Under the pieces are notes generated by a model, which worked only from the letters and a program-made list of their open reading frames with translations, was not told the DNA's origin and did not search any database. Positions 21,161-51,440 of a DNA stretch of 64,000 bases are shown piece after piece. Position 1 is the stretch's first letter, and each line of letters opens with the position of its first letter. The position numbers and the translations under genes were made by a program. Source of the DNA: a virus; IMG/VR virus record IMGVR_UViG_3300009537_000002, positions 23,821 through 87,820 of that record; one strand, 5' to 3'.

Positions 21161-24100
21161 TTACCTCGCAAATAGAGTATCATAGAAGTCACCCTGAGTA
21201 CGACCCACCCAAGCATTTGGCTGATACTTATCGTAAACATCACTGAGCATGAGACCAATACCCTCATCAGCTTCCTTGGCCCATTTAACAATCTCATCAC
21301 CAATGCTCTGAACAAATGTACCTTCCGTCTTCTTAATTGGCAATCCTGCCACCATGGCATTGCCACCTTTTACTAGCGGGCTATATCGGAACGGATGAGC
21401 CAGCTGGCTACGAGTGATCAACTTCTTGAAAATAAAGGTACCAATCATACCAAAGGCTGTGTTTGATGTACCTTGAGACAGAGCGTTCTCAGAGCTGTTG
21501 AAGAACATGTTGGCAATCGGGGTAAATGCATAGTTTAATGCAACAGCTCCTGCTCCTGCTACGGATGCTACAGCAGCCAGTGAACTACCAGCGACTCCTA
21601 CTGTTGTAGCCAAGTCTCCACTACCAACAGCACTTGTAGCTCCAGCAGCCACTGCACTAGGTGCACCGGTCATCAGGCTGGGCAGACTAGCGAGTCCCTG
21701 TTTTTGTAGAGCATACTCGGCCATCAATCCCATAGCATCACTAGTGCTCAGAGTTGTGTGTTGGTTTACGTGGACTATCAAGTCTGGTGTGATCTCTGTA
21801 ATGAAACCTGTGTCTTGGGAAAATCTATGGACCACTTGTTCTACTTCGATAGGACCAAACATGTCAGAGTACTCATCAAAAACATAGCAAATGTCATGTG
21901 GCTTGATACGTGGGTTTCCTACAATGACAATAGAACCACGATAGCTTTCCTTGAGAGTGTTGTATAGAAGACCAACAGCATAGCGCTTGGCCATCTCATA
22001 TCCTACACAGTTAGGATACTGAGCAAAGAGCTCACGGACATCTTCGTCCTTCACAGCAGCATCAGCACGGAGTGTGAATGTTTGGAGGTCATCGAAGACT
22101 AGCTGTGCTGTCTCGTCGCTAACATCGGCCGCATCATCACCATACTGTAGAGTCACTGTGTTGAACACGTTGCCAGATGACTCAATATTGTTCATCAAGA
22201 TGTGCTGAGTGCTAGTCAGGACATGGTAGTTCCTGAATGGCTTGATGAAACCTTGGTCGAGAGCAAAGTTCTTAATCTTCTTTCTGATCCAGAACTTCCT
22301 GGCTTGCTCGTATGGGTCTAGATCTTTTTGAATATCGTCTGTGACCTGCGCAGCAGCAACTCCTGCAATTGCGCCAAGGCCTGGACCTGCAATTGCAACA
22401 CCCACTGCCCCAGCTGCCAGTCCCACATTGGACGGTGCTGACTTGTTTGGATCGGTAGCCTTGTCGAGCTCGGTGCGACTATCTCTAAGCGTATCGACAG
22501 CGTCTTGTACGACCTTCTCAATACCCTCAATCTTATTGTCCTCGTTGAATGAAGGATCTCGAGCAAAGTAAAGCTGGTCGGGAACACCAAAGAACATTGT
22601 CATCCTTGGACCCCACTTACCTTCGTAGGGTACGGGGTAGGCTATGTAGGATGGGTGGCGAAGGGTCATCTCCTGGAAGGTGTCCCACACCGTGCTGTGG
22701 TACAAAGTGTACTTGGCAGTGGAATCGAAGAGGCCCCAGATACCCCTGCCCTTTGGTGCAAAGATGTTGTCGTCCTGGGGACTTGGCACAAAGTTCCACT
22801 CGTTGCGCAAAGATCCATAAGCCGTGTTGTTGGCCTTACCGCCCTCCCAACGACCAAAATGTACAACCTCTGGGAACGAGAGCATCTCTTCAAGAATCTT
22901 ACCAGTACGCCCCGTGCTGGAAAGGAACCCACCGAATGTTTTTACCTCACCATGCTGGTTCTGAACGAGCTCAACGGCGAAGCTCTGACAGACGATCTGT
23001 ACCATGTCATCACTTTCACTGAACGCAATGTCAGTGATAACGCCATTCAGTACGGTCTCGAGTTCATCTGGATCGTTGTTGTATCCTAAACGCAATTGCA
23101 TCTGCTGACCCGGTTTAAGCATCAATGAAGCAATCGGATTTTCATCGGCCGTGTTGGTAAGCAGAGGATCATTGTAGTCCTCAGTCACAATACGACCATC
23201 TGCTCCTCTAGGATCATCTGGGTCAGCTAGCTCTCTGAATTTACGATTACTGAGCACACCACTAACATTGGTCATACTGATGACCGCTAGGTCAACACCA
23301 ACCTTTCTACTTCTGATTACCTTGATGTCCTTGATTGAACTATAGGAGAAGAAGTCATCAAAACCAAATCGCTTACGCTCACCGAGGTCAGATTCAATGA
23401 AGTAGAGTCGGAACGTAGGGTATGCACGAAGTAGAGAGTAACCCTGACCATTGTGCATGTCTTTCTCGAGCTGTTCGATGCTTTTGGTGAAGAGAGACTC
23501 GTTTGTTGGATTGAGTCCAACAACAGGACCCTGACACACCCTTGCTTCACCTTTGAGCTTTGCTTCTGGATCAACAAACAGACCACCCGGATCGATCATA
23601 CCAAAGTGAAGGTGCGCACCTGTGCTAGCACCGGAACTTCCAACACGACCAATAATTTGACCCTGGGCCACGGACACCGTACCCAGGGCTGTCTTAGCAT
23701 TAGCCAAAGCTGCATACTCACCTTCAAACAACATGTGAGAGTATGTGGTTTTCCAACCACCGTCATGTGCCAGTTCGATACTGTTGCCTGAGTTCTTACG
23801 AGGCTGTTCGGCCTTGTCGGGATCCCATGGCTCATCACGAATGAAGGTGATATTGCCATCAGCAGCAGCACGGACAGGCAGGCCCAATGAACCTCCACGA
23901 GCAGAGATGTCTATGCCTTTGTGGGGTGTTATTTTCCTTTCAAAGTCACCACTCTGTAGAGCTTCTGCAAAACCCTTTTTGTCAAAACCATCCTTGTTGT
24001 TGAAGAACCCAACAATCTTTCCGGTATCTTTGTTCTTCAGCGCAATGGGGCTGATACGATCCAAATCGAACTTACTTGTCACAACCCTATTATTTGGATC

Positions 24101-27067
24101 AGTTGGCCAAGTCCAAACAGGTTCCTTGTTAGGGTCTCGTGGCTGTGCAGGTACATATGCTGGTTCACCCTTGAACTCAATCGAGTTTGTGCCAAAACGA
24201 TGTCTGGCTTTGGCATAATGCTTCTCATTTGGAGTCAAAGTGGCACCAGGTCGTGTCTTGAGAACCATGAGACCTGGTGAACGAGCTTCACCAAGCACAC
24301 TGAATGCAGACAGGTCCATCTTGGGAAGGCTAATAGGCTCATCGTGGCGTGCTTCCGTCTGGATACTACATGCCAAGCCATTCTCTACGTCGATGAGATC
24401 ATCATAGTGGAACACGGCCTCGGACGCTTGAATCTGAGCCTTCACAGCCTCTTGTACTTCTTTGCGCTTTGCTTCGTCTTCATCACTCTCAAACACACTG
24501 GCCCAGAAACTTTTGTCGAATTGTGTGTTAGCAGACTCGAGTCTAATTTGATTAGCCAGGGCGGGACCCATCTTAGCCTCATATGACTGTTCCACCCATG
24601 ACTTCTCGGCACCAGCGCGCTGAGTTGCATCTTCTTGCGAAGCCTTGATAGCTTCGATTGCTTTCTGTTGCACCTTGAACGGAATGAGGCTATTCACGTC
24701 ATCAGTGAGTTGATTGTACATATAGAAGTCTGGTTGCAATAGAATGCTGAGCCCTTTCTGCCTGGCACCAAAAACACCACGCTTAGCCGCCGTGAGTAAT
24801 TCTTCAGTGGCCATCCGCATAGCACTCTCGTCTGACGTGCTGAGGATCTGAACAACCTGTCGTAGAGGAAAGTCTGGATAGCAATCACCACTACTGGCCA
24901 TGATGTTCTCACTAAGCATCTCTCTCACAAGCTTGAACTGCGGAAGGTGGATGTGGTCAGTAAACGTAATCTTATCCAAGAAGGCCACAGAGAAGTGCAG
25001 CCAGTCCTGAAGAAATTCGTTGATGAAGTTGGCAACACGATTTACCTGGAGCTCCTCCACTGTGTCCACCTGGCTGGTTTGGATAGCGGCAAGAGTAGCA
25101 TTCTGCACCTCGGTATCTCCGCGTTGGATCGCCCGGGCAGCAGCAACCGATGCTTGACCCATCTCTCGAGAGTTTTTAATGTTTCGAGCTGCATCGCTGC
25201 GTGCTTCTTCAAGAGTACTTGGATCAAAGTGCACGCTGGCTCTCAATACTTGAGGAAGAAGAAATCTAATAGCCGGGAACAGATCTTCCTGAAGTCGCTG
25301 AATACCCGGAGCATCATCGTTATCTAGAGAGAAGAATTCGCTACTAGGAGGTACGAGACTGTCAAATGCATCAAACAACTCTAGATAGAGGTTGTTGAAT
25401 TCCTCGGCATATTCTTCACACAGAGTTCTAAATGCCTGGTTCCTGACAGGGTCGTTTGACGTCTTACCTTGTGGAGCATACTTGTAGAGACCTACTGTAT
25501 TTGCGATAGTTTTAAGCGACTCTGCGCTTCGACCGAACTGTCTCTCAAAGGTAAGATTCTTCAACAAGATCTCAGAGACCATGTTTCGAATATCTTGTCT
25601 AGTCTGCATACGCTGTCCGGGCTGAATGCTCTCCTTTGTATTTGGCTCAATAGGATTGTCGATCAGTTCAAGACTAGCAGTATAGGTACCAGGCTGGCCT
25701 GGTACCGTACCAGTTATCAAAGCATTGGGAATGAAGTGGTGTAACCCACACATGTTGACCAAGCCATTGAACAGGCGAATGTTTCTTTGACCCTGTGGGA
25801 TGACCTTGAATTTGTGTGCCTGGTCTTCCACGGTGTTGTAGAAGCTAGTTAGAGCAGACAAAGAATCTTCGGATGTTGTGACAATAGACAGGGTTACTAC
25901 GCCGTCAACACTGCCGATGTGCTGGAAGGTAGGATATGGATGACCAATGAGAGGAAGTTGTGCCAGCACATTCTCAAAGCTGATGGTCAGACCAGTAACG
26001 ATTAATCCACTGGATGGACCATTGAGTGCCAGATAACGAGATCGCTCGAGAAGCATTGTGCTTTCTGGCTCAGCCTGACCGACCTCTCTTCGTGGGGCTT
26101 GAGGCGTATCATTAAATGTAATAGCCTCCCCCTTGTTATTGAACACTGGATACCACACAGCGCGGTCAAGTAGAGAGAACCTGTTGTCTGCACCAGGTGC
26201 CAAGGTATCATCCAAAATATCGTTGACCTTCTGAACAGTAAGTTTCTCGGGACCCATAGAAGTAATGTGTCCAAACGTTTCTTCTGCAAGAAGTAATCCG
26301 CGCTCACGACCACGCGCTGCCACCAAAGACTTGATTACCTGTGCGTTAGCGCTGGTTCTTTGATCTGACTTCTTGGACACACTGAGCGCAATTTCTTTTT
26401 GAAGTTGCTGCAGTGCCTCAAAGTCTCTCTCCAGTTCACGATACTGATCTACTGTAAGAGAAGCGAACTGCTGAAACCTCATGCTGATGGCTTTGTCATC
26501 GAGCTTCTTGATCTTCTTGTAATCGTTTCGCTGTTGCTCAGCCCTGTACATAGTCTTCCAAGGCAGAGACTCAGCTGGGTTTGGAGTAGAGATAGCAGAG
26601 AAGAAATCCTTCTTGTAGCTCCAGTCCTTCAGAAACGCGTGGTAGTTGAACCACTGGAAAAAGAAGGTAACATCAACAGTATTAGTTGAGTCGTTCTCTT
26701 TAGAGATGTGGAGCTGTTGCAACGCCAACACCATCTGAGGTTCGGGTGAGCCACCCAACACACTGTTGCGAACGAACTGATTCTCTACGTAGCAGAATGG
26801 AGTGACACGAAACTGAGATACTAGATTGCGGAGCTGTTCTAGTCCGTTGTCGAGCTTGTTGTGACCGAATGCGCCTCGCGTAGTAGTCGTAAACTTCGCC
26901 GACACCATAATACGAATGGTTGAGAAGCCCGACTTGGACTTGATGGACGACCTAGTACGCAGGGTGTTCCACATGTGATTGACGGACTTCTTGTCAATCT
27001 GGATTTGTTCTGGTGGAATGTTGAGTACGATGTCGTTGATTTGGAAAAATCCATTATCTCCAGGCAT
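21161..27067 (-). CDS. Baseplate hub-like protein with internal M23 metallopeptidase
   Basis: 1968 aa. M23 motifs HKGID (~23909-23923), YSHM and HLHF (23603-23614); hub-like C-terminal part (IEVEQVVHRFSQDTGFITEITP). Confidence 0.75.
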   Translation of the reverse strand: MPGDNGFFQINDIVLNIPPEQIQIDKKSVNHMWNTLRTRSSIKSKSGFSTIRIMVSAKFTTTTRGAFGHNKLDNGLEQLRNLVSQFRVTPFCYVENQFVRNSVLGGSPEPQMVLALQQLHISKENDSTNTVDVTFFFQWFNYHAFLKDWSYKKDFFSAISTPNPAESLPWKTMYRAEQQRNDYKKIKKLDDKAISMRFQQFASLTVDQYRELERDFEALQQLQKEIALSVSKKSDQRTSANAQVIKSLVAARGRERGLLLAEETFGHITSMGPEKLTVQKVNDILDDTLAPGADNRFSLLDRAVWYPVFNNKGEAITFNDTPQAPRREVGQAEPESTMLLERSRYLALNGPSSGLIVTGLTISFENVLAQLPLIGHPYPTFQHIGSVDGVVTLSIVTTSEDSLSALTSFYNTVEDQAHKFKVIPQGQRNIRLFNGLVNMCGLHHFIPNALITGTVPGQPGTYTASLELIDNPIEPNTKESIQPGQRMQTRQDIRNMVSEILLKNLTFERQFGRSAESLKTIANTVGLYKYAPQGKTSNDPVRNQAFRTLCEEYAEEFNNLYLELFDAFDSLVPPSSEFFSLDNDDAPGIQRLQEDLFPAIRFLLPQVLRASVHFDPSTLEEARSDAARNIKNSREMGQASVAAARAIQRGDTEVQNATLAAIQTSQVDTVEELQVNRVANFINEFLQDWLHFSVAFLDKITFTDHIHLPQFKLVREMLSENIMASSGDCYPDFPLRQVVQILSTSDESAMRMATEELLTAAKRGVFGARQKGLSILLQPDFYMYNQLTDDVNSLIPFKVQQKAIEAIKASQEDATQRAGAEKSWVEQSYEAKMGPALANQIRLESANTQFDKSFWASVFESDEDEAKRKEVQEAVKAQIQASEAVFHYDDLIDVENGLACSIQTEARHDEPISLPKMDLSAFSVLGEARSPGLMVLKTRPGATLTPNEKHYAKARHRFGTNSIEFKGEPAYVPAQPRDPNKEPVWTWPTDPNNRVVTSKFDLDRISPIALKNKDTGKIVGFFNNKDGFDKKGFAEALQSGDFERKITPHKGIDISARGGSLGLPVRAAADGNITFIRDEPWDPDKAEQPRKNSGNSIELAHDGGWKTTYSHMLFEGEYAALANAKTALGTVSVAQGQIIGRVGSSGASTGAHLHFGMIDPGGLFVDPEAKLKGEARVCQGPVVGLNPTNESLFTKSIEQLEKDMHNGQGYSLLRAYPTFRLYFIESDLGERKRFGFDDFFSYSSIKDIKVIRSRKVGVDLAVISMTNVSGVLSNRKFRELADPDDPRGADGRIVTEDYNDPLLTNTADENPIASLMLKPGQQMQLRLGYNNDPDELETVLNGVITDIAFSESDDMVQIVCQSFAVELVQNQHGEVKTFGGFLSSTGRTGKILEEMLSFPEVVHFGRWEGGKANNTAYGSLRNEWNFVPSPQDDNIFAPKGRGIWGLFDSTAKYTLYHSTVWDTFQEMTLRHPSYIAYPVPYEGKWGPRMTMFFGVPDQLYFARDPSFNEDNKIEGIEKVVQDAVDTLRDSRTELDKATDPNKSAPSNVGLAAGAVGVAIAGPGLGAIAGVAAAQVTDDIQKDLDPYEQARKFWIRKKIKNFALDQGFIKPFRNYHVLTSTQHILMNNIESSGNVFNTVTLQYGDDAADVSDETAQLVFDDLQTFTLRADAAVKDEDVRELFAQYPNCVGYEMAKRYAVGLLYNTLKESYRGSIVIVGNPRIKPHDICYVFDEYSDMFGPIEVEQVVHRFSQDTGFITEITPDLIVHVNQHTTLSTSDAMGLMAEYALQKQGLASLPSLMTGAPSAVAAGATSAVGSGDLATTVGVAGSSLAAVASVAGAGAVALNYAFTPIANMFFNSSENALSQGTSNTAFGMIGTFIFKKLITRSQLAHPFRYSPLVKGGNAMVAGLPIKKTEGTFVQSIGDEIVKWAKEADEGIGLMLSDVYDKYQPNAWVGRTQGDFYDTLFAR

Positions 27068-27082
27068 TTACGGTTCGACCCC

Positions 27083-30000
27083 TTACATGAGCTTACTTGC
27101 GATCTCGTGTGGCGACAAGCGTGATCTGTTGTCTCTCAAGTTTACACTAGTATTTCTACCCATTCCAGCAAATCCAGATGCCAGGGCGGTGCCGTCTACA
27201 CCTGCCGGTGCTCTTGCTGCGACTCGAGCTCCACCTGATGGTGGACTCATTGAGAGTCTAACGTTCTGGTTTCTCATAACAAGAGGAGTAGTTGGTGAAC
27301 CGACATCCTTTGTACCTGGGTGTACATCTTCTGGCCTCATCCTATTGACGGCCTTACGTCGATTCATGTTTAGTCTAGCATCTGGGATCTTACCACGACC
27401 AGACCCTACTGTCTTTGGGGGGTCAGACAAGATGGCACCCAGCGCCAGTGTACCAGCAAACCCCAGACCGATAGCCTTATGGTGACGCAGTAGACCTGCA
27501 CCCAAAGCGCCCATCTTGTTAGTAGCAGTTGAATATGCAGTGGCCACCTTCTTCATCATACCAGGAGCTTCTTGCATACCCATGAAGGCTGTTCTTGCAG
27601 ACAGCTCTGCAATTTCTATCTGCTTAGCACGAGCACCACGACCAGCAAGTAGCTCTGCAGTACGAGTGAATCCTGTGCGGTCGGCTTCATTGAGTGAACG
27701 CATCATCTCTCGAGTCGCAGAGTGCACGTTGATACCTTGAATTTGCTGAGCCATTTTAGTACCAGTAGCACTAGAAATAGCCTTGGCACCTTCTGCATCT
27801 AGATGAACGGTGCCCTGCAACATAGCCTTGGCTACTGTATCGTCTTTGACGATGGTTGCAATATTGCCTTCAAGTGTCTTGGCATCTCTGCCCTGCATAG
27901 CATCTGTGATGCTCATCATGAGACCTTGGAGTCCACCTTCAGCAGCTTCCAAAGCCGACATATGCTTAGCAGAGATAGGAGCTTGTTCGAGCCACTCCAA
28001 CAGGAAACGAGCATCACTGGCAGCTGCACCCTGGCCAAACTTGGTGAGCGATCTCTTGGCTGCTGTCATTTCAAGTGACAGAGGAGCGATCCACTTCTGT
28101 CCGACTGACAACTTTTCCACCTCAGCCATCATCTGCTTGAGTGGAATGGTTTCAGCTCCAGTAGCAGCTTTACCAGCCTTGAAGAGCTGCATCCTTACCT
28201 GATGCTGCGTGTATCTGCGAGCGTACTCACTATCCTGTAGCATACTTGCTTTGCGAAGAGCTTCTTCGTTACGAGGACCCAACAAGAAAGTAGAATAGGC
28301 ATCAGCGTCCTTGTCACCTGCCAAGCCAACTAATGGACCAAGTGTCAATGTCTTCTCTTCGAAAGCTCCACCTACCTCAGTGGCTACACGGACGTTCTTG
28401 GTTATTTCGGGCAAGACTATGAGATTGGATCGGCCTTCGACCATGCGCATACGAACTGGCTGCATAGAGAATTCACCAAGCAGCGGGTGGCGTCCTAGCA
28501 TACCAGCGATCTCTCCACCTTTTTCAAACCTGGTCCTCATCGCCTCGAGTGCTTCAATGTCTCCCTTATAGAGACCTGTCTCAACCATTTCATTCCACAT
28601 GCCAAGGAAATTCTCCCTGGTGATACCAACAACATTAGCTTCACGGATGGCAGTGGCTGCACCACCCACTCGCTGTGCAGAGACACCGCGAAGAAAACGA
28701 GAGCCTAGAACCTTACCACGTGCAACAGCACCAATGCCTTTGCCAGCAGGCACAAATTCTCTACGTAGTATGTCTCTTTGGAACCCTAACTGGCGGGTGA
28801 GTTCTTCTTGAGAGATCAATCCTTCCTCTGCTTGGCCCACCTTGGCAGCGATGTCACCATAGATTTCAGACAACCGACCTCGTGAGGTGACACCTGCATG
28901 TGTTTCATAGGGACGTAACTGAGTCATAATGTCCATTCCTGGAACATAGATTTCCTGACCAGCTCCTCGGATGACACCACCACCGCGTTCTAGAAACTTC
29001 TGGAAGTTTTCGCCCTGTCTAAAGATAGCCGCACCAGCAGGAGCAGCAGTACCTGACATAGTAGCAAGAGTCTTCTGTAGCTCCTGGTGCGCAATGAGAG
29101 TTTCAGGAGAGGTAGCAGCCAGACGCTGCATGAGTTCTTCACTGACGTCTCCACCTGCTGTACCCAAAGCACCACCCTTAAGAATGTCGAACACACGAGG
29201 TTCAACAGAGCCAAGCCCACCGACATCCAACATTGGACCGCCATAAGCAAACTCTGGCAGACCCATCGCAGTGCCACGTTGAAGTGCCTCTTCAAAAGTA
29301 CCAAGCGCCTTACCACGCAATCCAGCACGAGCCAACATTGCAGACACAACACCACGTCCACCTTTTTCAGCTGTACCACCCATAACATATGGAACAGCAC
29401 CAAATGCTTCACCAAACTCACGCTCTGTGACGTCCATCATGCCAACAGCAAATTGCATTGCTCTTTCAGTAAACCTTCTGTGACTGAATGCTCCACCTTT
29501 GAATGCTTGAGCAGCAAACGCTTCACCTGGTGCTGCCATGAATCGTGCTTGAGCTCGAGTGAACGGAGCTCCGCGGCGCTCAAGAATCCCTTGAAGTGAG
29601 TCAACCATCTGTCTACGATGGAGAGCTCGATTTTTTCTGAGTTCATCCATGCTGATAATGATGTCTACATTACGATCATGAATACCAAGTTGTCTGAGTG
29701 CACCACCAAAAGCCTGTTCTTCTCTAAAGAGAGCTAGGGCTTTAGCACCACCAAACAACTTGCCGCCATGAGCAAACTGGTGACGGCGAAGAATTTCTAC
29801 AGAGACCTCTTCACCAGCAGCACGACGAACACCAGTGATAGCGGCACCCTCAGGTAAAGTGAATGGCTTGCCTTCAGGAGTGAGGCCGAGTACTTCTCCT
29901 CCTCTGATACCTCCACCAGCAATGTCTTCCCGAGCTCGAATAAGCTTCTGAGTCACAGATTCTTCGAAGATCATCTTGTCGCCTGTGCGAGCTCGAAACA

Positions 30001-31474
30001 AGGTTTCACCTTCGCCCATGGCCTGTTGTTGCATAAAGCTTTGTTCACCAATCATTAGCCTTGGATCTACATAAGCAGCCTTGAGTTTTGGACGGACAGC
30101 ATTGGAGTAGGCCAAGGCCTCACCTTCAGCTTGGACGGCACGATAGTATCCACTACCTTTCTGACCAAGAGCCTTCATGCTCTCTTCTGCGATTTGGAAT
30201 TCACGAAAGATCTGTTCTGGACGACGTGAATAGTCTACGGGACCAAGGGCATAGCGTTCCCATTCTGCCGTTGACAACATGCCTTCGGCTAAACCTTTCG
30301 GGCCTACACCACCACGAAGACCCAACTCTCTACCAGCGGCAGATCCCATAGCAACACGGATCTCATCGTCGGTCATTGCGCGGAAACCTGGACGATACTC
30401 GGCTCCACCTCTGCGAACACCCACAGGTGCGACCATCTCAACGGCCATCCCACGAAGTGCTTCACGTTGAGCCTGAGCAGCGGTGCGACTTTCGAGTATG
30501 TTGGCAGGAGTAGTTTCCAGTTCTCCAAAGATCCTTCCTCTCAGCTGCTTAATCGCACGCTCTACATCGCCTTGTGTTTTGAGTCGTCCACCAATTTCAG
30601 GAGCGATACCACGCTCAAGCTCCTGGAGAAACATTTCAGTACGACCGATACGCTGGAGTTTTCCTCCTTCGCCCATAACTACAAAGTCTGGAGCGATACG
30701 ACGTGTCTGTAGTGCCATGCCTTCAGCTATCATCCCACCTGATACCTGAGGCAATTGCACACGAACATCGCCAACACGAGTGCCTTCAAAGATCACGTTC
30801 CAGGCTCCCAACCCCTCACCTGCAAGTTCAGGCCGTGTGATACCGAACATCTGTCGGCCAGTTCCACCCATAGCTGCTTGAACACGTTCGATGCCAGACA
30901 TGAAAGGAGCAGGGATAGGAGTAGCCATTGCGATAGTTGCCTTTGGAGACAAACCTTGAATCTGGTTCACTCCCACAAAGTTGGGTAGACCAAATTGTGT
31001 GGCTTGGGCAGTGAGTGTTCCAACGTTTCTTTCGAAGCGCTGCCAAATACGACCTGCAGCTACAGAGGTTTGACCAGCCATTGTGGCCGAGATTGCCGAG
31101 CGAGCTTCCGCTGGGGTCATGTTCATGATGCCTTCGGTAAGACCCAGCATCTGCTTTCTTGTGAACGGATCGACAGACTGAGTTGCCCACGCCCAGGCTC
31201 TACGTTGAACATCGGTCCTGCTGTACTGCATGAATCGATTGACGTCTTCGATGCTAGGGATAGGTGGGCCGCGGCGTGATGCCTGCCTGCCAAGAGTACG
31301 CATGGCCTGGTCAATGCCAGCCTCGCGTGGTTGTTTCAGTGATCCTTCAACGTGGATACCTTTCAATGCAGCAGCAATACCCACAGTGAGAGGAGTAGCA
31401 GCAATAGCAGTTCTGAGTAGACTACCACCGCTACGATCCGGAAACTGAGGATCGCTATCTCTACGTTCAGCCAT
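27083..31474 (-). CDS. Putative single-chain two-barrel virion RNA polymerase at the tape-measure locus
   Basis: Motifs in order: GGKLFGGAK (K572/K578), VDIIIS, RGKVLGS, GRHP (R995), GDKDAD (D1054/D1056/D1058), QAPISAKH (Q1164-H1171). No Cys in 1463 aa. Confidence 0.78.
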   Translation of the reverse strand: MAERRDSDPQFPDRSGGSLLRTAIAATPLTVGIAAALKGIHVEGSLKQPREAGIDQAMRTLGRQASRRGPPIPSIEDVNRFMQYSRTDVQRRAWAWATQSVDPFTRKQMLGLTEGIMNMTPAEARSAISATMAGQTSVAAGRIWQRFERNVGTLTAQATQFGLPNFVGVNQIQGLSPKATIAMATPIPAPFMSGIERVQAAMGGTGRQMFGITRPELAGEGLGAWNVIFEGTRVGDVRVQLPQVSGGMIAEGMALQTRRIAPDFVVMGEGGKLQRIGRTEMFLQELERGIAPEIGGRLKTQGDVERAIKQLRGRIFGELETTPANILESRTAAQAQREALRGMAVEMVAPVGVRRGGAEYRPGFRAMTDDEIRVAMGSAAGRELGLRGGVGPKGLAEGMLSTAEWERYALGPVDYSRRPEQIFREFQIAEESMKALGQKGSGYYRAVQAEGEALAYSNAVRPKLKAAYVDPRLMIGEQSFMQQQAMGEGETLFRARTGDKMIFEESVTQKLIRAREDIAGGGIRGGEVLGLTPEGKPFTLPEGAAITGVRRAAGEEVSVEILRRHQFAHGGKLFGGAKALALFREEQAFGGALRQLGIHDRNVDIIISMDELRKNRALHRRQMVDSLQGILERRGAPFTRAQARFMAAPGEAFAAQAFKGGAFSHRRFTERAMQFAVGMMDVTEREFGEAFGAVPYVMGGTAEKGGRGVVSAMLARAGLRGKALGTFEEALQRGTAMGLPEFAYGGPMLDVGGLGSVEPRVFDILKGGALGTAGGDVSEELMQRLAATSPETLIAHQELQKTLATMSGTAAPAGAAIFRQGENFQKFLERGGGVIRGAGQEIYVPGMDIMTQLRPYETHAGVTSRGRLSEIYGDIAAKVGQAEEGLISQEELTRQLGFQRDILRREFVPAGKGIGAVARGKVLGSRFLRGVSAQRVGGAATAIREANVVGITRENFLGMWNEMVETGLYKGDIEALEAMRTRFEKGGEIAGMLGRHPLLGEFSMQPVRMRMVEGRSNLIVLPEITKNVRVATEVGGAFEEKTLTLGPLVGLAGDKDADAYSTFLLGPRNEEALRKASMLQDSEYARRYTQHQVRMQLFKAGKAATGAETIPLKQMMAEVEKLSVGQKWIAPLSLEMTAAKRSLTKFGQGAAASDARFLLEWLEQAPISAKHMSALEAAEGGLQGLMMSITDAMQGRDAKTLEGNIATIVKDDTVAKAMLQGTVHLDAEGAKAISSATGTKMAQQIQGINVHSATREMMRSLNEADRTGFTRTAELLAGRGARAKQIEIAELSARTAFMGMQEAPGMMKKVATAYSTATNKMGALGAGLLRHHKAIGLGFAGTLALGAILSDPPKTVGSGRGKIPDARLNMNRRKAVNRMRPEDVHPGTKDVGSPTTPLVMRNQNVRLSMSPPSGGARVAARAPAGVDGTALASGFAGMGRNTSVNLRDNRSRLSPHEIASKLM

Positions 31475-34400
31475 TATACCAATCCGTCTAGAGCAGCATC
31501 ATAGTCGACGTCTTGCTCAATGTCGATATCAACACCAGGGAAGTTCCTGTGGAACACACTGGCCCGAGCTCCTTGTGGAATTAGGAGTTCATCTATTCTA
31601 TCCTGCATTTCTCCTGGACTCAATTGCTCTGGGTTCATCAGAGGAGCAATAGCGGACTCGTTGATGAATGGTTTGTTCACCAACGCTTGTGCACGCGAAG
31701 GCCACAGGTCAAAGTCATGCATGTCTTCACCCATACTCTGCACCACCTTAAGCTTCACATCTTCCAGGTCAACAGACGGATGCCATCCTACCCAGTCATC
31801 ACCAGGCAACGGTACTTCAGAGAGCAGCTTAGTTCTACGGTACCAGTCTCCATAGTTCTCACCAGGTAGCTTGGTCGCTACATACTCAGCAAACAACTCT
31901 TCGTTGTTTGGGAAACCTTCTGATCGAGCTTCATCTCTGATTTGTTCCAGAATGATATCTGCCTCAGCGATCTGGTCTTCTGACAATAGTCCAGCCTTCT
32001 CTGCTTTCTCTACATCCTGTTTGAACTGTAGCTTCCAGCGAGCAATGTAGAGAGCCTTCTCATTGTCAGGAACGAGCTCGAGGATCTTTGATCTCTCTTC
32101 CACAGTATCAGCTGCAGCAAATGAATTGAAGTAGTCTCGCTCACGTCTGGGGAGAGAACGGAAGATGTGAGAGAAGTTGTATGTGAATGGATTGAGGCCA
32201 AACAACGTCTCGTTCTTCTTAGCTTCAAACTCTTTCACGGCAGCAGTGTCACCGCTCATCCTAGCCAGGTTCGAAAGTCTTGCTTGCTTTGTGTATTCTA
32301 GGACATCAAAGTACTGCTCGAGACCACGTCTTTCCTTGATGTGTTCGGGAATGGAATCGAAGCCCATCGACTCACCTACCTTGGTAAGGAACGGACGGAT
32401 GAAGTCACGCATTGGATGTGACCAGAACGCGTTCTCCGTACCATAGATCTGACTGTTCTCATAGTCTTCAATTGCTGTTCGTTGGTGAATGAGTTTGGCT
32501 GCGGGTGATACTGGCGTGAGGACATCCAAAGATGTCTCAGCGTTGTGAGCTAACATTTCCCAGTAGCCACCAAAGAACTTGGCAAAGACACCCTGCTCTG
32601 GTTTTTCTGACGCCTTGATCCTATTGAGTTCTGCTAGTACTCCTTTTGATTCATCCTTGTAGTAAGCTCCTTCATCGTCTATGTCCCCAGTAGGACTCAG
32701 GTATTCGTATTCTGCGAACCTTCTCTTGATCTTCCTTTCCTTGAGTTGAGCTTCGGTCATCTTGTAGATGCCTTCCTCATACTCGCTCCAAGTCTCTAAT
32801 TTCCTTTGGCTTCTGATGCTCTGCAGCATGGACTTGTACTTGTCACTGTACGGAGCCACATCAGCGAGGATCTTGTACCTGTGGATATCAGGGTAGTCTT
32901 CAGGTTTGAAGTTCTGGAGCTCTGGGAAGCGGGCTGCATAACCGGCCCCTGGGAGCCGTAGCTCGCCCTCCTGGACCTTTGTATAGGGATCTCCATGAAG
33001 GAAGTCAGGAGACTTCTCTCCGGGCCCTGGGAGCCACTCAGGCATCATGTTTCTAATTGGGTTGTACAGAGGGATCTGACGCCTTCTGTGAGGGTACAAA
33101 CGCCTCAAAGCCTCTGTGGTTCCCAGTCCACCACCGATTTCAAGGTCCCAATAGTCTCTCTCAGTGCCAAAAGCACGTCGAGCGGACTCCAAACGCATGG
33201 TTTGGTCGAAAAAGTCAGCAGATCCAGTCAGTGCTTCCTTGATAGAAGAGATGGTGAAACCTGGAAGACCGATCATTTCAGTCATTCTGTAGGCTTGTTC
33301 ACCTGCTGTTCCTGTCAGATTGAAGGGGGTTTCAGCACGTCCAGGTGGAAGCTCTCCCAGTTCAGCTGCACGGCGCTCGCCAAAGCCAGGAGCCATGGCC
33401 AATTGTTCGCCACCAGGCCCCATCCACTCCTCAGTGTGCATCAAGACAGGTGGCTTGATGAGCCTACCAATCGTGTTGGCGAGAAGAGGTCCGATAAATG
33501 GAACATCTTCAAATGGGAGACTGGTGATAGGGTATGGTCGTTCTTCGTAGAACTCTCTCTCGAGATCATACGTGAACTCTTGTCTCCACCACTGTTGTAA
33601 TGGAGTCGGCGGCTTGTCTCCCCAAATGGAGACTTCTTTTGACCTCTGTTGCATACGGGCATACCAGTGAGGTCTGTAGTACATGATTCGGTTGCCTTCC
33701 CATGGTGTGCGACCAAACTCCCACCATCTACCCTTTCTGATTGGTACTTCCTGTTGACCAGAGTAGATGCGTTCGAGCTCGTCTGGCCTAGTGGAAGGAA
33801 CCAGTGCACCAGGTAGGAAAGGAGCAATAAGTGCTAACCCGAGGCCTGCACCAGCGAGACCAGCCAGCTTGGTGGGTCCCATCTTGCCAACGAATGGATA
33901 AGCCTTATCTCCAAAGAGCCGACCAAAACGGCCCATCAGTCCCTCGGTGCCAAACTTAGTGATTTGCTCAGATGCCAGTGTACGTGCAGCAGCAGGACCA
34001 ATGCCCTTCGCATATTGCAATTGAGCCATCTTGCCTACTTGTGCTGCGTAGGAGATGCCAGCCGCGCCGAAGGCACCCATAATTGGGAATGCTAGAAGTC
34101 GAGATAGGTCGGTGCTACCAGGGGCTAGTCTTTCTTGTGCTTCACGGTATGCGTGAAGACCAGTAACTTCGGCCACGCTAGAGGCTAACTGATTAGCACC
34201 AGTCCAAATCGAAGCAAGTCCCGCAGTGAGTCCTTGGTTTAAAACAGTTTCATCAAAGACACTGGCCTCACGGAACATGTAGTCGAGTGATTGATAACCA
34301 AGAGCAAGTCCACCAGCTACAGCACCATACTTCCAAGCCAAACGGCCCAGCATTTGAGTGCCCGAACCATATGGGACAGCCAGTTGAATCCTTCTGCCGG

Positions 34401-35274
34401 TCAGGTTGTACAGCAGATCTTGAGCTCCACCGAACACCGTTCTAAACGGCTGCATTTCGAATGGTGCTTCAAGCAGTCGATTGAAACGAGAAACAAACTC
34501 AGTGCCAATGGCGCCAAGCTGTCTACCTGCATAACCCCACGGTGTTTGCGCTCCAATGATTTGACGATGGAACTTGCCTGTTGCTAGACCAAGTTCTTCT
34601 CCAAACATACGAGCGTCGCCAGCTGCCATACCGAAACGAGCTCCAGTGCCAAAGCCCATTGAACGTGCATAGCCTGAGCCAAGATGTTTACCAGCAATAG
34701 AACCTAAGTATGACTCGCTCTCTCTCAGGACAGGATCAGAAATAGGACTGATCATCGCACCTGCATAGCGCAGAGCAACGTCACCGGTCTGACCAAAGTA
34801 GAGACTGCCACCACGGAATGTTACACCTTCTTTGAGTACTCGAGCATGAGTACCTGGTGCATCACCTGTTAGCTGAGCAAGGTATCTTGCATATCCACGA
34901 CCTGCATCAGAACGAAGAAATGTTCCGGCAACAGAGAAGCCTTGTCGTGCCTGAGTGGTGAACTGAGAGAAGAAAGTAGAAGCCTGGAAGGTACGAAACA
35001 CACCACCCGGTGAGTACTCTTCGATAGCACGTAGACCACCAACATAGTAATCCCACATCCTCCTACCACCACCGACTGGGATGAAACCGCCTGCCAGTAT
35101 TCCACCAGCAACAGCTCCAGCAGTCAGCATGCCAGATGTTGGATGTGCCTCCTCATAGAAACCACTCGGTGGGCGGTTGGTCCACACATCTGGTTGCTGA
35201 CGCGGATCACCCATGGATGGCCCATAATAGGCACGTGTATCCGTGAGGCTAAATCTGTTGGGGTACCTTGGCAC
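31474..35274 (-). CDS. Tape-measure-like / ejection protein with hydrophobic segments
   Basis: 1266 aa directly after the tail chaperones; several Gly/Ala-rich hydrophobic stretches; no Cys. Confidence 0.6.
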   Translation of the reverse strand: MPRYPNRFSLTDTRAYYGPSMGDPRQQPDVWTNRPPSGFYEEAHPTSGMLTAGAVAGGILAGGFIPVGGGRRMWDYYVGGLRAIEEYSPGGVFRTFQASTFFSQFTTQARQGFSVAGTFLRSDAGRGYARYLAQLTGDAPGTHARVLKEGVTFRGGSLYFGQTGDVALRYAGAMISPISDPVLRESESYLGSIAGKHLGSGYARSMGFGTGARFGMAAGDARMFGEELGLATGKFHRQIIGAQTPWGYAGRQLGAIGTEFVSRFNRLLEAPFEMQPFRTVFGGAQDLLYNLTGRRIQLAVPYGSGTQMLGRLAWKYGAVAGGLALGYQSLDYMFREASVFDETVLNQGLTAGLASIWTGANQLASSVAEVTGLHAYREAQERLAPGSTDLSRLLAFPIMGAFGAAGISYAAQVGKMAQLQYAKGIGPAAARTLASEQITKFGTEGLMGRFGRLFGDKAYPFVGKMGPTKLAGLAGAGLGLALIAPFLPGALVPSTRPDELERIYSGQQEVPIRKGRWWEFGRTPWEGNRIMYYRPHWYARMQQRSKEVSIWGDKPPTPLQQWWRQEFTYDLEREFYEERPYPITSLPFEDVPFIGPLLANTIGRLIKPPVLMHTEEWMGPGGEQLAMAPGFGERRAAELGELPPGRAETPFNLTGTAGEQAYRMTEMIGLPGFTISSIKEALTGSADFFDQTMRLESARRAFGTERDYWDLEIGGGLGTTEALRRLYPHRRRQIPLYNPIRNMMPEWLPGPGEKSPDFLHGDPYTKVQEGELRLPGAGYAARFPELQNFKPEDYPDIHRYKILADVAPYSDKYKSMLQSIRSQRKLETWSEYEEGIYKMTEAQLKERKIKRRFAEYEYLSPTGDIDDEGAYYKDESKGVLAELNRIKASEKPEQGVFAKFFGGYWEMLAHNAETSLDVLTPVSPAAKLIHQRTAIEDYENSQIYGTENAFWSHPMRDFIRPFLTKVGESMGFDSIPEHIKERRGLEQYFDVLEYTKQARLSNLARMSGDTAAVKEFEAKKNETLFGLNPFTYNFSHIFRSLPRRERDYFNSFAAADTVEERSKILELVPDNEKALYIARWKLQFKQDVEKAEKAGLLSEDQIAEADIILEQIRDEARSEGFPNNEELFAEYVATKLPGENYGDWYRRTKLLSEVPLPGDDWVGWHPSVDLEDVKLKVVQSMGEDMHDFDLWPSRAQALVNKPFINESAIAPLMNPEQLSPGEMQDRIDELLIPQGARASVFHRNFPGVDIDIEQDVDYDAALDGLV

Positions 35275-36811: not shown

Positions 36812-37384
36812 TTAGATCAATGTTCTTGCTATGAATGTATATTGCTCCTGAAGCCTTTGTAGATCAAGGAAGTTATTGCTAACTTCCTGTTCATAGCTAG
36901 TCTTGCCAATATGACAACTTTTACACAATAGTTGGCAATTGTCGATACTTCCTGTTCCGCCAATACATACAGGAATGATGTGATCAAATTCGCCTTTTTG
37001 AAAGAGGCCTTCACGGCAAATATTACACTTGTCTTCCTGGCCAAGCCTAACTGCTTTCATTGCGATTGCGCTAAACCTGTTTTTTCGATGCTTGATTTGA
37101 GACCTATCAGCAACATATCTAGGGTGGTTCTTGCCAGAGGCTCTAAAAATGGCTGGATCATTTTTATTGAACTGGTGGCGATAAGGACCACTAGCGATGT
37201 TTTCGATATTCTTTTTTTGAATTTTCTCTAGGTACTCAGAGTGTTTATAGAGTCCGAGTCTCCTCGCTTTGATTCTAGTGGCAGGTAGAGAACGATTTAA
37301 GGTCTTAGCAACAACACTGTCAGAAGTCGTAGGAAAAATACATTTGAGAGTTTCGATTTCAAAATCCGTCCATTTAGAAGCCAT
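36812..37384 (-). mobile_element. Free-standing HNH homing endonuclease
   Basis: CNIC...FDHIIPVCIGGTGSIDNCQLLCKSCH; N-terminal HTH/Myb-like KWTDFEIETL...ARRLGL; AT-rich (20/60 GC in line 37201). Confidence 0.85.
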
Positions 37385-38238
37385 TAGATTAGTGTCCTGG
37401 CAATGAAGGTGTATTGTTCCTGGATAGGAAGTCCGTCAATCTGTATTTGCTTAGACTTACCAAGGATATAGACATTCCTAATACGTTCGATCGTATGGTT
37501 GGCGTAGTCGTCACCGGCAAAATCACCAAAGGTTACGTACAAGTCGAATGGGTTGAGCCTATTGTCGTCCGCCCGGCGATCTTCTTGATCTAGCTGGGCT
37601 GGACTCTTTCTCCAAAGGGCGTTTTCAAAGGCTTCAAAGCGATTCTCTGCGCGTCCAACAGATCTCTCTTCTGGATCTGTAGCAGCACGGAACCTCTGAG
37701 TAGAGGCAAAACCACCCAAGTTGGCACCAAGAGAATTAGCAGCAAAGAAGTCTCGGAAGTCTTCCTCGATCCTAGCCTGTTGATCTCCTTCTTGTTGCCT
37801 ACGTGCCAAGTCTAGGAGGAACTGGTTTCGTTCAAATACAGATGTTTCACCATTGACGATCTGTTCGATGTTCTGTCTCTCAGCATCACCAGGTCGGCCG
37901 CCCACGTCTTTGACATTGTCAAATGGACCCTGGGTCCTAGCAGTCAGAGATGTCTTGTTGCGATGAAGTTTTCGATAGCGATCCAAGATTAACCACAGGT
38001 AGCCAGCTTCTTTGAAGTTGACTGTGAACGTGCCGGTAACCAAGATGTGACCTTCGGATACATCGTCGAACAAAGTAGAAGCATACCCGTAGATTGGAGA
38101 ACGAGATTGCGTGTATCCGTACGCCAAGGTGGTGACTTCATCTACCCAGACGTCACCAATGTATAGTGATACCTGAGCACCAGAGAAGTACTCAACGTTA
38201 TAGACACCACGACGTACTACATTTGCTTCCTGTCCCAT
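37384..38238 (-). CDS. Tail tube-like protein (paralog 3; tube initiator/baseplate-proximal)
   Basis: YFSGAQVSLYIGDVWVDEVTTLAY...SPIYGY...VTGTFTVNF aligns with the major tube protein. Confidence 0.7.
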   Translation of the reverse strand: MGQEANVVRRGVYNVEYFSGAQVSLYIGDVWVDEVTTLAYGYTQSRSPIYGYASTLFDDVSEGHILVTGTFTVNFKEAGYLWLILDRYRKLHRNKTSLTARTQGPFDNVKDVGGRPGDAERQNIEQIVNGETSVFERNQFLLDLARRQQEGDQQARIEEDFRDFFAANSLGANLGGFASTQRFRAATDPEERSVGRAENRFEAFENALWRKSPAQLDQEDRRADDNRLNPFDLYVTFGDFAGDDYANHTIERIRNVYILGKSKQIQIDGLPIQEQYTFIARTLI

Positions 38239-39467
38239 TATCTATTCGTTAGCCTCCTGCGAACTCCCAGTCTAAGCAGGTGTTCGTTGTACGCATCATT
38301 GTCGAACAACAGACTAGAACCAGTGAGGTCTTTGTCATCCTTGTCGTTGAACATGCCACGCTGCAAGCGACTAAGTCTGAATCTACCACGAGATGTCATG
38401 ATGTCAGCATCGCGACACACATAGTTCATTGTTCCTTCCGACAATAGGTCCTCAATAGAGAACACCTTACCGTCAGTGACAAACTCAACTCCGTAGAGTC
38501 TCAAGTCAGACAAAGCACCATATTCATTGGCAAAGACTAGGGTAAGATCGATTGGAGGTAGCTGGTCAGGAAGGAATGTAGATAGTTCGGCATCACGTTC
38601 TCCATAGGTTCTCGAGTTGCCCATGCGGCGAATCAGATCAGCCAGAGCGTGCTCGTTGAAGATAGTAAAGATCATTGACCCACCAATGGTACGGGTGCCG
38701 CGTGTATATCCCTTGGCATATGAATGCCCAAGGGCCCTAACAGCATTCTTTTCTCGGAAGCTTTGTAGGGAGATAGTTTGTAGAGTACCCAACACTACCG
38801 TGTCACTAGATCGACCATCTCCCGCCGCGCCGATACGCTCAAGATTGTCGATCCTGTCTGTGAACTCAGTAACCTTGGCTCCGTAGAGTTGTCTGAGAGT
38901 GAAGGCTTGGCGCTTCATTCTGGCTGTACCGATAAAGCTAATATTCCCGCCCTTCAGAATGTTGCCGATCAACAGGTTCACAGCCTTATCGTTCTCTGCG
39001 CCACCAGGAAATGGAAGTCCCGTTGCAGCAATAAAGAGCTCTCGTCTCTGTGCATAGTCTGACACAAGAGAAGGATCACCGAACCCTTGCTGCTGTGCCA
39101 GGCCATCTAAACCACCGTTGATGAGATTGTCACACCCATCTACTACCAACTGAGCCTCTGAGCGCTGTGAGTTCAACTGCTCAAGCTTCTCTTCTAACCA
39201 ATTATTGCTATCATAGAGGTGTGCAACAACCTTGAGGTCAACACCCGAGAAGGATGAACTCAGGAAGTTGATACTGGCCTCAGCGCCTTGCTGGGCAGGT
39301 AACGTTTTGAAAGCTTCGTCGACAGCTAGCCTAGTCTCTGCCAATTCGAAAATAGCAGGATCATCTAGGTCAATTCTGTTTTCTGCATTGCCAGGTCCTG
39401 GCGTAATCGGCTTTCTAGCAACGACCCGCTCACCAGATCTACTGGTTCTACGAATGTTAGCAGTCAT
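38238..39467 (-). CDS. Tail tube-like protein with ~130 aa insertion (paralog 2)
   Basis: SFSGVDLKVV-[insert]-LGTLQTISLQSFREKNAVRALG...RGTRTIGGSMIF aligns with the tube protein. Confidence 0.75.
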   Translation of the reverse strand: MTANIRRTSRSGERVVARKPITPGPGNAENRIDLDDPAIFELAETRLAVDEAFKTLPAQQGAEASINFLSSSFSGVDLKVVAHLYDSNNWLEEKLEQLNSQRSEAQLVVDGCDNLINGGLDGLAQQQGFGDPSLVSDYAQRRELFIAATGLPFPGGAENDKAVNLLIGNILKGGNISFIGTARMKRQAFTLRQLYGAKVTEFTDRIDNLERIGAAGDGRSSDTVVLGTLQTISLQSFREKNAVRALGHSYAKGYTRGTRTIGGSMIFTIFNEHALADLIRRMGNSRTYGERDAELSTFLPDQLPPIDLTLVFANEYGALSDLRLYGVEFVTDGKVFSIEDLLSEGTMNYVCRDADIMTSRGRFRLSRLQRGMFNDKDDKDLTGSSLLFDNDAYNEHLLRLGVRRRLTNR

Positions 39468-39483
39468 TGTTTAGTTCCTTGTG

Positions 39484-39505
39484 AAAAGGGGCCCTTCCGG
39501 GCCCC
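39484..39505 (-). terminator. Intrinsic terminator after the major tail tube gene
   Basis: Minus strand GGGGCCC-GGAA-GGGCCCC-UUUU: perfect 7 bp stem with a GNRA loop. Confidence 0.8.
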
Positions 39506-39519
39506 GTTCCGATTGATCA

Positions 39520-40215
39520 TTAGCCAGTAGGTGCACTAGCCGCTCCGCTCCTTGCGAGAGCATCACTGATCTTCTGATCCTTGACTGGTCGCCACCCGAT
39601 GAGGGTACGTGCCACATACGTCATCTGTTGTTCAGAGACGATGTCATCAATGGATACACCATATCCTTCGTTAAGGATTTCACAGCCGTAAATTCTCATT
39701 ACAGCAAGAGATCCATACTCATTGGCCGCAGCCAGAGTAATGTCAAACGGAGGAATTTGGTCAGAGAACCATGGAGCTACAACCTCCTGGTCTCCACCTA
39801 CGGTAGAGATAGGAGATTCTTGACCGGCAATACCTACACCCAAAGCGGCACCTTGCAACTGAGCACCCAGAGCACCAGTCTCTGGGGCGGTTACGATGCT
39901 TTCGGGACGGATATCGTCAACGTCAGAGAGGAAGAGTAGCTGCTGGGCAGCATTCTGCGCCTCGACGTCTTGGCCAAAAGTGGAGATCAGCGCATGGCGG
40001 TCGAATACCAAGAAAATCAAGGTACCGGCGATACCACGCTTACCACGGGAGTATGCTCGGGGGTCAGCCGAACCCATAGTATAGAGAGGGGCCTTCTCTC
40101 TCGTAATCGAGTACGAGATGGCCTGCAACTCTGCGATCACCTGATTAGCAAAGACACCCTTGATGTCTACGCCGGAAAAGCTATTGTAGCCTCTAGCAAT
40201 CTCATTGGTTGGCAT
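39520..40215 (-). CDS. Major tail tube protein
   Basis: 231 aa right after the sheath gene. SFSGVDIKG...LQAISYSITREKAPLYTMG...RGKRGIAGTLIF; strong RBS and downstream terminator. Confidence 0.85.
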   Translation of the reverse strand: MPTNEIARGYNSFSGVDIKGVFANQVIAELQAISYSITREKAPLYTMGSADPRAYSRGKRGIAGTLIFLVFDRHALISTFGQDVEAQNAAQQLLFLSDVDDIRPESIVTAPETGALGAQLQGAALGVGIAGQESPISTVGGDQEVVAPWFSDQIPPFDITLAAANEYGSLAVMRIYGCEILNEGYGVSIDDIVSEQQMTYVARTLIGWRPVKDQKISDALARSGAASAPTG

Positions 40216-40230
40216 TATTCACTCCTCCTA

Positions 40231-49408: not shown

Positions 49409-49409
49409 G

Positions 49410-51437: not shown

Positions 51438-51440
51438 GCT

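Follow-up and report, generated by a model that had tools for sequence, protein, structure and literature searches.

The window analysed here is a stretch of 64,000 nucleotides (positions 23,821 to 87,820) of the IMG/VR virus record IMGVR_UViG_3300009537_000002, a record of 103,635 bases that is estimated to be 54% complete. All genes of the window lie on the minus strand, and among them is an open reading frame (ORF) at 27083..31474 that encodes a protein of 1463 amino acids (P0001). A first-pass annotation, made from the letters alone, had proposed that this protein is a single-chain two-barrel RNA polymerase encoded at the tape-measure locus of a phage with a contractile tail. A confident structure model, two independent fold searches, and the conservation of the catalytic motifs support that proposal. 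The ORF was verified against the ORF list and by translation, and its start codon is backed by N-termini that are conserved across 14 homologues. The start of the gene overlaps the stop of an upstream gene (encoding 1266 amino acids) by 1 base, and a gap of 15 bases separates its end from a downstream gene for a hub protein of 1968 amino acids. When residue i was placed at 31474-3(i-1), every motif that had been quoted in the first-pass annotation was recovered where it had been placed and in the same order. The features of the gene are listed below. (Note that model numbers, here and in the fold matches that follow, count within the modelled stretch of residues 400-1260.)

27083..31474, minus strand: the whole gene, a predicted single-chain beta-beta' two-barrel RNA polymerase in the tape-measure slot (ORF, family of 234 clusters, models)
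31355..31426, minus strand: N-terminal hydrophobic helix, residues ~17-40 (Kyte-Doolittle peak at residue 19; low-confidence helix in the model)
30989..31267, minus strand: predicted helical bundle, residues ~70-162 (model; generic helical-bundle matches only, Z 5-6, with no specific relative)
30173..30916, minus strand: beta1/protrusion-like domain, residues ~187-434 (VIA-align Z 4.7-6.8 to the beta subunits of AR9, vaccinia, Xanthomonas, Thermus, M. tuberculosis, and plastids)
29720..30016, minus strand: beta-type double-psi beta-barrel, residues ~487-585, six strands, with K572/K578 at 29741-29761 (model, fold matches)
ending at 29651, minus strand: VDIIIS (translation)
29195..29212, minus strand: G-S-x-E-P-R motif (E758, R760), invariant in 78 sequences, which by eye we take to resemble the GEME(R) near the C-terminus of beta/Rpb2
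28736..29107, minus strand: helical, clamp-like connector, residues ~790-913 (VIA-align Z 6.7 to the archaeal RNA polymerase clamp domain 3qqc_A, model 391-514)
28280..28720, minus strand: beta'-type double-psi beta-barrel, residues ~919-1065, with R919-S925 at 28700-28720, G994-P997 at 28484-28495 (R995-H-P997 at 28484-28492), and D1054-K-D-A-D1058 at 28301-28315 (translation, invariance, Foldseek, and matches to proteins made of such a barrel only)
28037..28144, minus strand: putative bridge helix of 36 residues, 1111-1146 (model 712-747), placed from the model; the Rpb1/beta' alignments span model 409-861
27950..28030, minus strand: trigger-loop-like element, residues 1149-1175 (Q1164, K1170, H1171), with Q1164-H1171 at 27962-27985 (translation, conservation, in register with the WH1 family; putative function)
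27086..27577, minus strand: C-terminal module, residues 1300-1463 (alignment with the slot proteins of phages 0305phi8-36, WH1, ME3, and Moorella phage MTATph1)

To assess conservation, residues 400-1260 were aligned across 78 diverse members of the protein family, with a mean column identity of 26%. Identical in 78 of 78 sequences are G530, E758, R760, P845, R995, P997, D1054, D1056, D1058, S1133, and E1163. K572 is retained in 76 of the 78 and K578 is a lysine in 74 and an arginine in 3; K614 and Q622 are each kept in 77. In the trigger-loop-like element, Q1164 is found in 71 of the sequences, K1170 in 77, and H1171 in 71. Homologues thus conserve the catalytic motifs, as the first-pass annotation required of its own proposal: the aspartate triad and the R-x-P are invariant and the lysines nearly so. 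The protein passes the published filter [RK]xP x{20,100} DxDxD (PMC10770324), with 56 residues between P997 and D1054, where the filter allows 20-100 between the R/K-x-P and the aspartate triad. In the AlphaFold2 model described below, D1054-K-D1056-A-D1058 lies in a loop that connects strands of the second barrel, and K572 and K578 lie on strands 173-176 and 180-185 (model numbering) of the first barrel, with a spacing of 6 and not 8. Judged by sequence, R-x-P followed by DxDxD, together with two lysines, is a two-barrel polymerase signature, and the motifs that had been quoted are far more than a product of chance.

The AlphaFold2 model of residues 400-1260, built from the 78-sequence alignment, has a mean predicted local distance difference test score (pLDDT) of 92.6 and a predicted template modelling score of 0.92. 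It is a globular alpha/beta structure with two six-stranded barrel regions, and not a helical ruler. Searching the PDB with Foldseek gave 72 matches at E<=1e-3, and the best 50 of these 72 are nearly all bacterial beta' subunits or their cyanobacterial or plastid equivalents. VIA-align, which was run without Foldseek against 48,161 representative chains, matched QDE-1 with Z 12.0 (12.0-12.1 for QDE-1-type enzymes) over both barrels (model 1-800). Further matches were to the beta-like subunits of the non-virion polymerases of AR9 (Z 11.8, model 1-354) and phiKZ (Z 11.3, model 2-354), the second subunit of Pol I (Z 10.9, model 4-353), RDR2 (Z 10.7, model 1-797), Rpb1 of Pol II (Z 10.5, model 409-861), P74-26 gp62 (Z 10.4, model 1-798), and P23-45 gp96 (Z 9.5, model 1-808, both barrels). 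(We take P74-26 gp62 to be the P74-26 phage polymerase that is the counterpart of P23-45 gp64.) Proteins that consist of the barrel only (CDC48-N, VAT-N, and designed double-psi beta-barrels) matched model ~521-697 with Z 7-9. When the 994 best chains from Foldseek were re-aligned with VIA-align, 967 had a Z of at least 8, and the best 50 of these were all RNA polymerases. The check that had been suggested at the outset, an AlphaFold model followed by Foldseek, has thus been run and returned RNA polymerases, and P23-45 gp96, which had been named in advance, is among the VIA-align matches.

The matches divide the model into two halves. The first, model 4-354, corresponds to beta/Rpb2 and the second, model 409-861, to beta'/Rpb1, each with Z 10-12; in particular, model 4-354 pairs with residues 662-1244 of E. 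coli beta and 750-1104 of Rpb2 with Z 11-12, and the Rpb1/beta' alignments made by VIA-align begin at model 408. Between the barrels is a well-modelled connector of ~300 residues, and its resemblance to the archaeal clamp domain suggests that a clamp-like element may be present there. A second model, of residues 1-440, has a pLDDT of 86.6, and residues 187-434 match best to the N-terminal portions of several beta subunits, with Z scores (4.7-6.8) that are individually weak and mutually consistent. Taking the two models together, ~1,070 of the 1,463 residues would make up a beta-then-beta' single-chain polymerase, leaving only ~190 N-terminal and ~200 C-terminal residues outside it. Searches of predicted structures returned further candidates. 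The top cluster in the ESM Atlas comprises 208 mostly viral proteins of 911 amino acids with fused Rpb2_6 and Rpb1_2 domains (template modelling (TM) score 0.51), and the top cluster in AFDB (A0A0F9QJZ1) corresponds to a 1052-amino-acid "DNA-directed RNA polymerase" (E 3.6e-13, TM 0.50). In BFVD the top match is a metagenomic protein labelled "minor tail protein", and ME3 gp036 also matches (E 3.4e-6).

Two other identities for the protein were weighed and dismissed. The globular model and the lack of a tape-measure domain rule out a simple helical tape measure: residues 70-1260 were modelled as globular alpha/beta, and neither Pfam nor PHROG gave a tape-measure match that would argue for a classical tape measure. 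The DKDAD motif as a calcium loop of the DxDxDG type is ruled out as well, the loop being located in the beta'-matching double-psi beta-barrel and having an R-x-P partner.

Sequence comparisons with established families were negative. The 1463-amino-acid protein has no Pfam match (E<=1) and no PHROG family, even at permissive thresholds. No match among PDB sequences was obtained by phmmer with the protein or by hmmsearch with the 78-sequence profile, and tblastn against 50,697 phage records returned nothing. Relatives are nevertheless numerous. A word-indexed search found 15 of them, with identities of 39-70%, some of which lie on contigs 160-206 kb long. An exhaustive search with a profile gave 234 cluster representatives (clusters at 50% identity) at E<=1e-3, and for 167 of these E was 1e-30 or lower. 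The full-length members mostly have between 1,430 and 1,600 amino acids. In the literature that we searched, from which subscription journals were excluded, we found no description of this family, nor of a polymerase in ME3 or WH1.

The genes around the polymerase gene are those of a contractile tail:

31474..35274, minus strand: upstream gene (P0160), 1266 amino acids, cysteine-free, homologue of ME3 gp035 and of the 0305phi8-36 virion protein gp145
21161..27067, minus strand: downstream hub with M23 peptidase, 1968 amino acids (PF01551, phrog_20474), homologue of 0305phi8-36 gp147
40231-42129, minus strand: tail sheath (phrog_16991, 1e-78)
39520-40215, 38238-39467, and 37384-38238, minus strand: three tube-type paralogues (phrog_9206)

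The sheath gene and the tube paralogues (37384..42129) show that the tail is contractile. The order that the first-pass annotation gave for these genes (sheath, tube paralogues, large upstream protein, 1463-amino-acid gene, hub with M23 peptidase) is correct. The upstream protein is homologous from end to end to ME3 gp035 (BLASTP E 1e-75) and in part to gp145 of 0305phi8-36 (5e-21), which is a virion protein by mass spectrometry, and two small genes upstream of it lie at the chaperone position. When used in tblastn, the hub protein matches the hub proteins of ME3, WH1, and the Moorella phage. The distant cultured relatives are Bacillus phage 0305phi8-36, Acinetobacter phage ME3, Bacillus phage WH1, and Moorella phage MTATph1. 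Cultured and metagenomic relatives have a common gene order: chaperones, a first giant gene (gp145-like), a second giant gene (hereafter the slot), and the hub. Because the upstream gene is a gp145 homologue in this shared order, the 1463-amino-acid gene occupies the slot of 0305phi8-36 gp146. This revises the first-pass annotation in one respect. The polymerase gene had been thought to be an extra gene beside a tape measure, and that does not hold, as the large upstream gene is the gp145/ME3 gp035 homologue; its position in the tail locus next to the hub stands. (Note that mass spectrometry detected gp146 in virions and that its assignment as the tape measure was made mainly from its length; PMC2147016.)

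The proteins that occupy the slot in ME3 (gp036, 1603 amino acids), WH1 (gp095, 2515 amino acids), and 0305phi8-36 (gp146, 2537 amino acids) share with the 1463-amino-acid protein a C-terminal module made up of a helix, a hydrophobic segment rich in Gly/Ala, a linker rich in Pro, and a terminal N-x-N-h-x-D-N motif. None of the three has BLAST-level similarity to the 1463-amino-acid protein, and Pfam recognises nothing in them. WH1 gp095, which exceeds the 1463-amino-acid protein by 1,000 residues, and 0305phi8-36 gp146 can be aligned with one another only over the C-terminal module. Apart from this module, the slot proteins diverge very fast. Two of the proteins carry polymerase-type motifs: ME3 gp036 contains REP...DHDQD, and WH1 gp095 contains RYP...DHDGD. 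Moreover, when a profile of the WH1 family (an alignment of five sequences) was compared with that of the polymerase family, hhalign gave an E of 3e-4, with the R-x-P, the aspartate triad, and the trigger-like motif in register. DxDxD is absent from 0305phi8-36 gp146 and from CDS0027 of the Moorella phage. The family profile matched none of the single sequences of ME3 gp036, 0305phi8-36 orf99, and P23-45 gp96 (residues 1-1200), which is consistent with the published observation that such families share little beyond the Asp loop (PMC10770324). As far as our searches reached, none of the slot proteins of ME3, WH1, and 0305phi8-36 is annotated as a polymerase or described as one in the literature searched.

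Three further observations concern the slot proteins. In 0305phi8-36 gp146 (L002:16624-24237) a DnaQ-like D-I-E-T-T-G can be seen by eye, for which Pfam gives no confirmation. The WH1 family (gp095, L020:10593-18140) has, in addition to the polymerase motifs, an N-terminal F-D-x-E-N-x-G-T that is possibly related to the motif in gp146, again with no confirmation from Pfam. In Moorella phage MTATph1 (L019:11513-18869) the slot gene is apparently split by a transposase (CDS0028), and the C-terminal module is encoded further downstream by an ORF of its own (CDS0031).

Among published systems, the closest is gp96 of phage P23-45, a proven virion two-barrel polymerase located at the N-terminus of a siphovirus tape measure of 5,002 residues (PMC10770324; PDB 8H2M/8H2N), with kin in P74-26, G20c, and TSP4 (Chaban et al. 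2024, PMC10770324). The first-pass annotation had named this polymerase as tape-fused, which is correct (PMC10770324). The two proteins are alike in being single-chain two-barrel polymerases with R/K-x-P...DxDxD, in occupying the tape-measure position of a tail module, in having hydrophobic segments, and in having no sequence-detectable similarity to cellular polymerases, and the structural match between them (Z 9.5) extends across both barrels. The likeness is structural only: hhalign found no match between the family profile and residues 1-1200 of gp96. They differ in several ways. P23-45 is a siphovirus, whereas the phage here has a contractile tail, and ~1,070 of the 1,463 residues of its protein are polymerase. 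In gp96 the ruler carries a metallopeptidase; here the polymerase is not joined to a long ruler that bears metallopeptidase and membrane domains, and an M23 peptidase is found in the next gene, that of the hub. Moreover, gp96 is flat and clamp-less, whereas the connector of ~300 residues here has clamp-like similarity (Z 6.7). Finally, P23-45 has a second, non-virion polymerase, and none was found in a complete relative of the phage studied here.

Other single-chain enzymes resemble the protein to different degrees. Phage fused beta-beta' mini-polymerases (the 208-protein ESM cluster with PF00562 and PF00623, and AFDB A0A0F9QJZ1) are the best global matches, with TM scores of 0.50-0.51 over 530-930 positions and the same one-chain beta-then-beta' order. 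Unlike the 1463-amino-acid family they are still matched by the Pfam Rpb1/Rpb2 models, and they are ~500 residues shorter. The PF05183-type enzymes (QDE-1, plant RDR2, SPbeta YonO, and 0305phi8-36 orf99), which are also single-chain, give the highest VIA-align Z, over both barrels, and likewise lack a flap insertion in the beta-type barrel. Membership in the YonO/PF05183 group is ruled out, as the PF05183 model matches neither the 1463-amino-acid protein nor any other sequence of the genome or of five related records, and the same model detects 0305phi8-36 orf99. In 0305phi8-36 itself, orf99 is a YonO-like, non-structural gene of the right arm, away from the tail module (PMC2147016; PMC2919709). 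For the group to which 0305phi8-36 belongs, YonO-like enzymes are the only ones given in jumbo-phage reviews (PMC7824862), and ME3 is missing from the survey tables of Chaban et al. (PMC10770324).

The composition of the protein is also unusual. Neither the 1463-amino-acid protein nor the upstream 1266-amino-acid protein (together window 27083-35274) contains a single cysteine; the ORFs of the genome average 0.8% cysteine, so that ~12 would be expected in the former. Among 129 full-length polymerase relatives, 126 are cysteine-free, and no relative has more than one. Loss of cysteine would suit a protein that traverses the periplasm unfolded. (Two more large cysteine-free ORFs were observed, one at window 9023-10978 and the other beyond the window at record positions 96756-99536.)

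One relative, of 188,653 bases with terminal repeats, is complete. The polymerase family is present in it once, and this member is the sole large ORF to pass the [RK]xP..DxDxD filter. A second polymerase in the phage was looked for in this genome and rejected: none was found by Pfam models (RdRP, Rpb1 domain 2, and T7-type polymerase are all unmatched), by the family profile, or by the filter, the T7-type search having been run without a working positive control. The other large non-structural genes of the complete relative encode a ClpB-like ATPase, an AAA ATPase, ribonucleotide reductase, and DNA polymerase III alpha.

We reasoned from these findings that the protein would be an active single-chain RNA polymerase that is carried in the tail of the virion and expelled to start phage transcription, a reading to which we assign a probability of roughly 0.63. 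Its storage in the tail and its injection are suggested by the synteny, by the C-terminal module shared with the other slot proteins, and by the absence of cysteine. The protein may be assembled into the virion with the tail, the C-terminal module serving as an anchor beside the hub. Upon contraction of the sheath it would be expelled via the tube through the cell envelope, would refold at or in the membrane, and, with no need of the host polymerase, would then transcribe the first phage genes as the DNA enters.

Several points weigh against this reading. Because a folded core of ~120 kDa exceeds a tube lumen of a few nm, the core would have to be stored unfolded or elsewhere, and because ~1,070 of the 1,463 residues are polymerase, little sequence is left for a ruler. 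The beta-type half of two-barrel polymerases elsewhere contributes a fourth acidic residue to the active site (D814 in E. coli beta, D837 in Rpb2, D709 in QDE-1). In the 78 sequences this residue has no invariant counterpart upstream of the lysines; the best candidate, E488, is D/E in 64 of the 78, and D517 is D/E in 50. The language-model look-alikes of the protein are tape measure proteins, a resemblance that is weak. The family profile did not match orf99 or gp96, and "virion structural protein" for WH1 gp095 is the depositor's label only. In addition, the source record, at ~54% completeness, is without the presumed early region, and the T7-type search in the complete relative had no working positive control.

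One alternative concerns the position of the protein in the virion: the RNA polymerase, active and carried by the virion, would be stored in the capsid and ejected from there, as happens in N4, crAss-like, and phiKZ-like phages, and the place of its gene in the tail operon would reflect late co-expression only. Known virion polymerases other than gp96 are all head-packaged (PMC10770324; PMC7824862), the folded core is bigger than a tube lumen would admit, and a cysteine-free composition suits any ejected protein. We nevertheless consider capsid packaging unlikely, given that the gene always lies between the gp145-like gene and the hub in the relatives examined, that its C-terminal module is common to the slot protein assigned as a tape measure, and that the top viral structural match carries a tail-protein label. 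Alternatively, the enzyme might be active and not packaged at all, a late product that acts inside the cell, for example on late genes. This would fit with its being the only polymerase candidate in the complete relative, but a polymerase that first appears as the product of a late structural operon could not set off the programme by which it is itself expressed. Moreover, the hydrophobic ends, the C-terminal module of the slot, and the family-wide loss of cysteine would go unexplained in a cytoplasmic enzyme, and the protein at the corresponding position in 0305phi8-36 belongs to the virion, all of which makes an unpackaged enzyme quite improbable.

We also regard as quite improbable the idea that the protein is mainly a structural component of the tail lumen or a tape measure, in which the two-barrel fold is an exapted scaffold or has some other nucleic-acid activity (priming or RNA-templated synthesis). 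The aspartate triad and R-x-P that are invariant, and the lysines that are nearly so, in 78 sequences of ~25% identity indicate selection on catalysis; the model is that of a globular alpha/beta enzyme and not of an extended helix; and Pfam gives no tape measure domain, even at E<=1. On the other side, the slot is that of an assigned tape measure, the language-model neighbours are tape measure proteins, and the slot evidently works without a polymerase, since gp146 and CDS0027 have no DxDxD. In addition, QDE-1, the top structural match, takes both RNA and DNA templates (PMC9508822).

A polymerase carried in the tail and expelled from it can be placed in a broader account, which we put forward tentatively and at somewhat short of even odds. 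There may be a large uncultured clade of jumbo contractile-tailed phages whose sole RNA polymerase resides in the tape-measure slot, as a cysteine-free and compact beta-beta' fusion that Pfam and PHROG do not see. The polymerase would be expelled unfolded via the tail and through the periplasm, would refold at the membrane by means of its hydrophobic ends, and would both start transcription and help to draw in the genome. The polymerase module would be ancestral to the slot in 0305phi8-36-like phages, retained by ME3 and WH1 but lost from 0305phi8-36 itself. If this account is true, many "tape measure" annotations in the 0305phi8-36-like group refer to injected enzymes. Our findings suggest that the "tape measure" and "virion structural protein" annotations in these phages need revision.

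Virion RNA polymerases allow infection to start without the host enzyme and to escape defences that act against host transcription, and the phage studied here probably injects its own transcription enzyme. Delivery of a polymerase with the tape measure has been published so far for one thermophilic siphovirus lineage only. What is new here is its probable extension to contractile-tailed jumbo phages, with a family of >200 sequence clusters that Pfam and PHROG models do not recognise. The cultured relatives ME3 and WH1 are open to direct testing. How a polymerase core of ~120 kDa would be stored in a contractile tail and passed through it is a physical puzzle, and the protein, as a very compact natural beta-beta' fusion, may be useful for studies of minimal two-barrel enzymes.

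Some minor observations were made in the course of the analysis. The gp145-like gene, which encodes 1,266 amino acids in the window, encodes 2,111-2,123 in relatives (L010:1989-8324, L015:2098-8469) as the result of a large central insertion; the length of the polymerase gene stays constant. The PHROG family of the tube-type paralogues, phrog_9206, is labelled "major head protein", yet it is the family of 0305phi8-36 gp140/gp141, which a record note identifies as the tail tube and a tube paralogue. A gene for an HNH endonuclease (window 36812-37384; matched by many PHROG HNH families, the best at 7e-11) lies between the third tube paralogue and the genes at the chaperone position. In the complete relative of 188.6 kb, inteins with HNH or LAGLIDADG endonucleases are found in the AAA ATPase, the large subunit of ribonucleotide reductase, and DNA polymerase III alpha (L023:11357-19439, L024:6077-10096). 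Finally, a GC-rich island at window 48001-52000 (0.56-0.58, compared to ~0.48 elsewhere) spans the genes at 48887-51437 in a fibre-like block.

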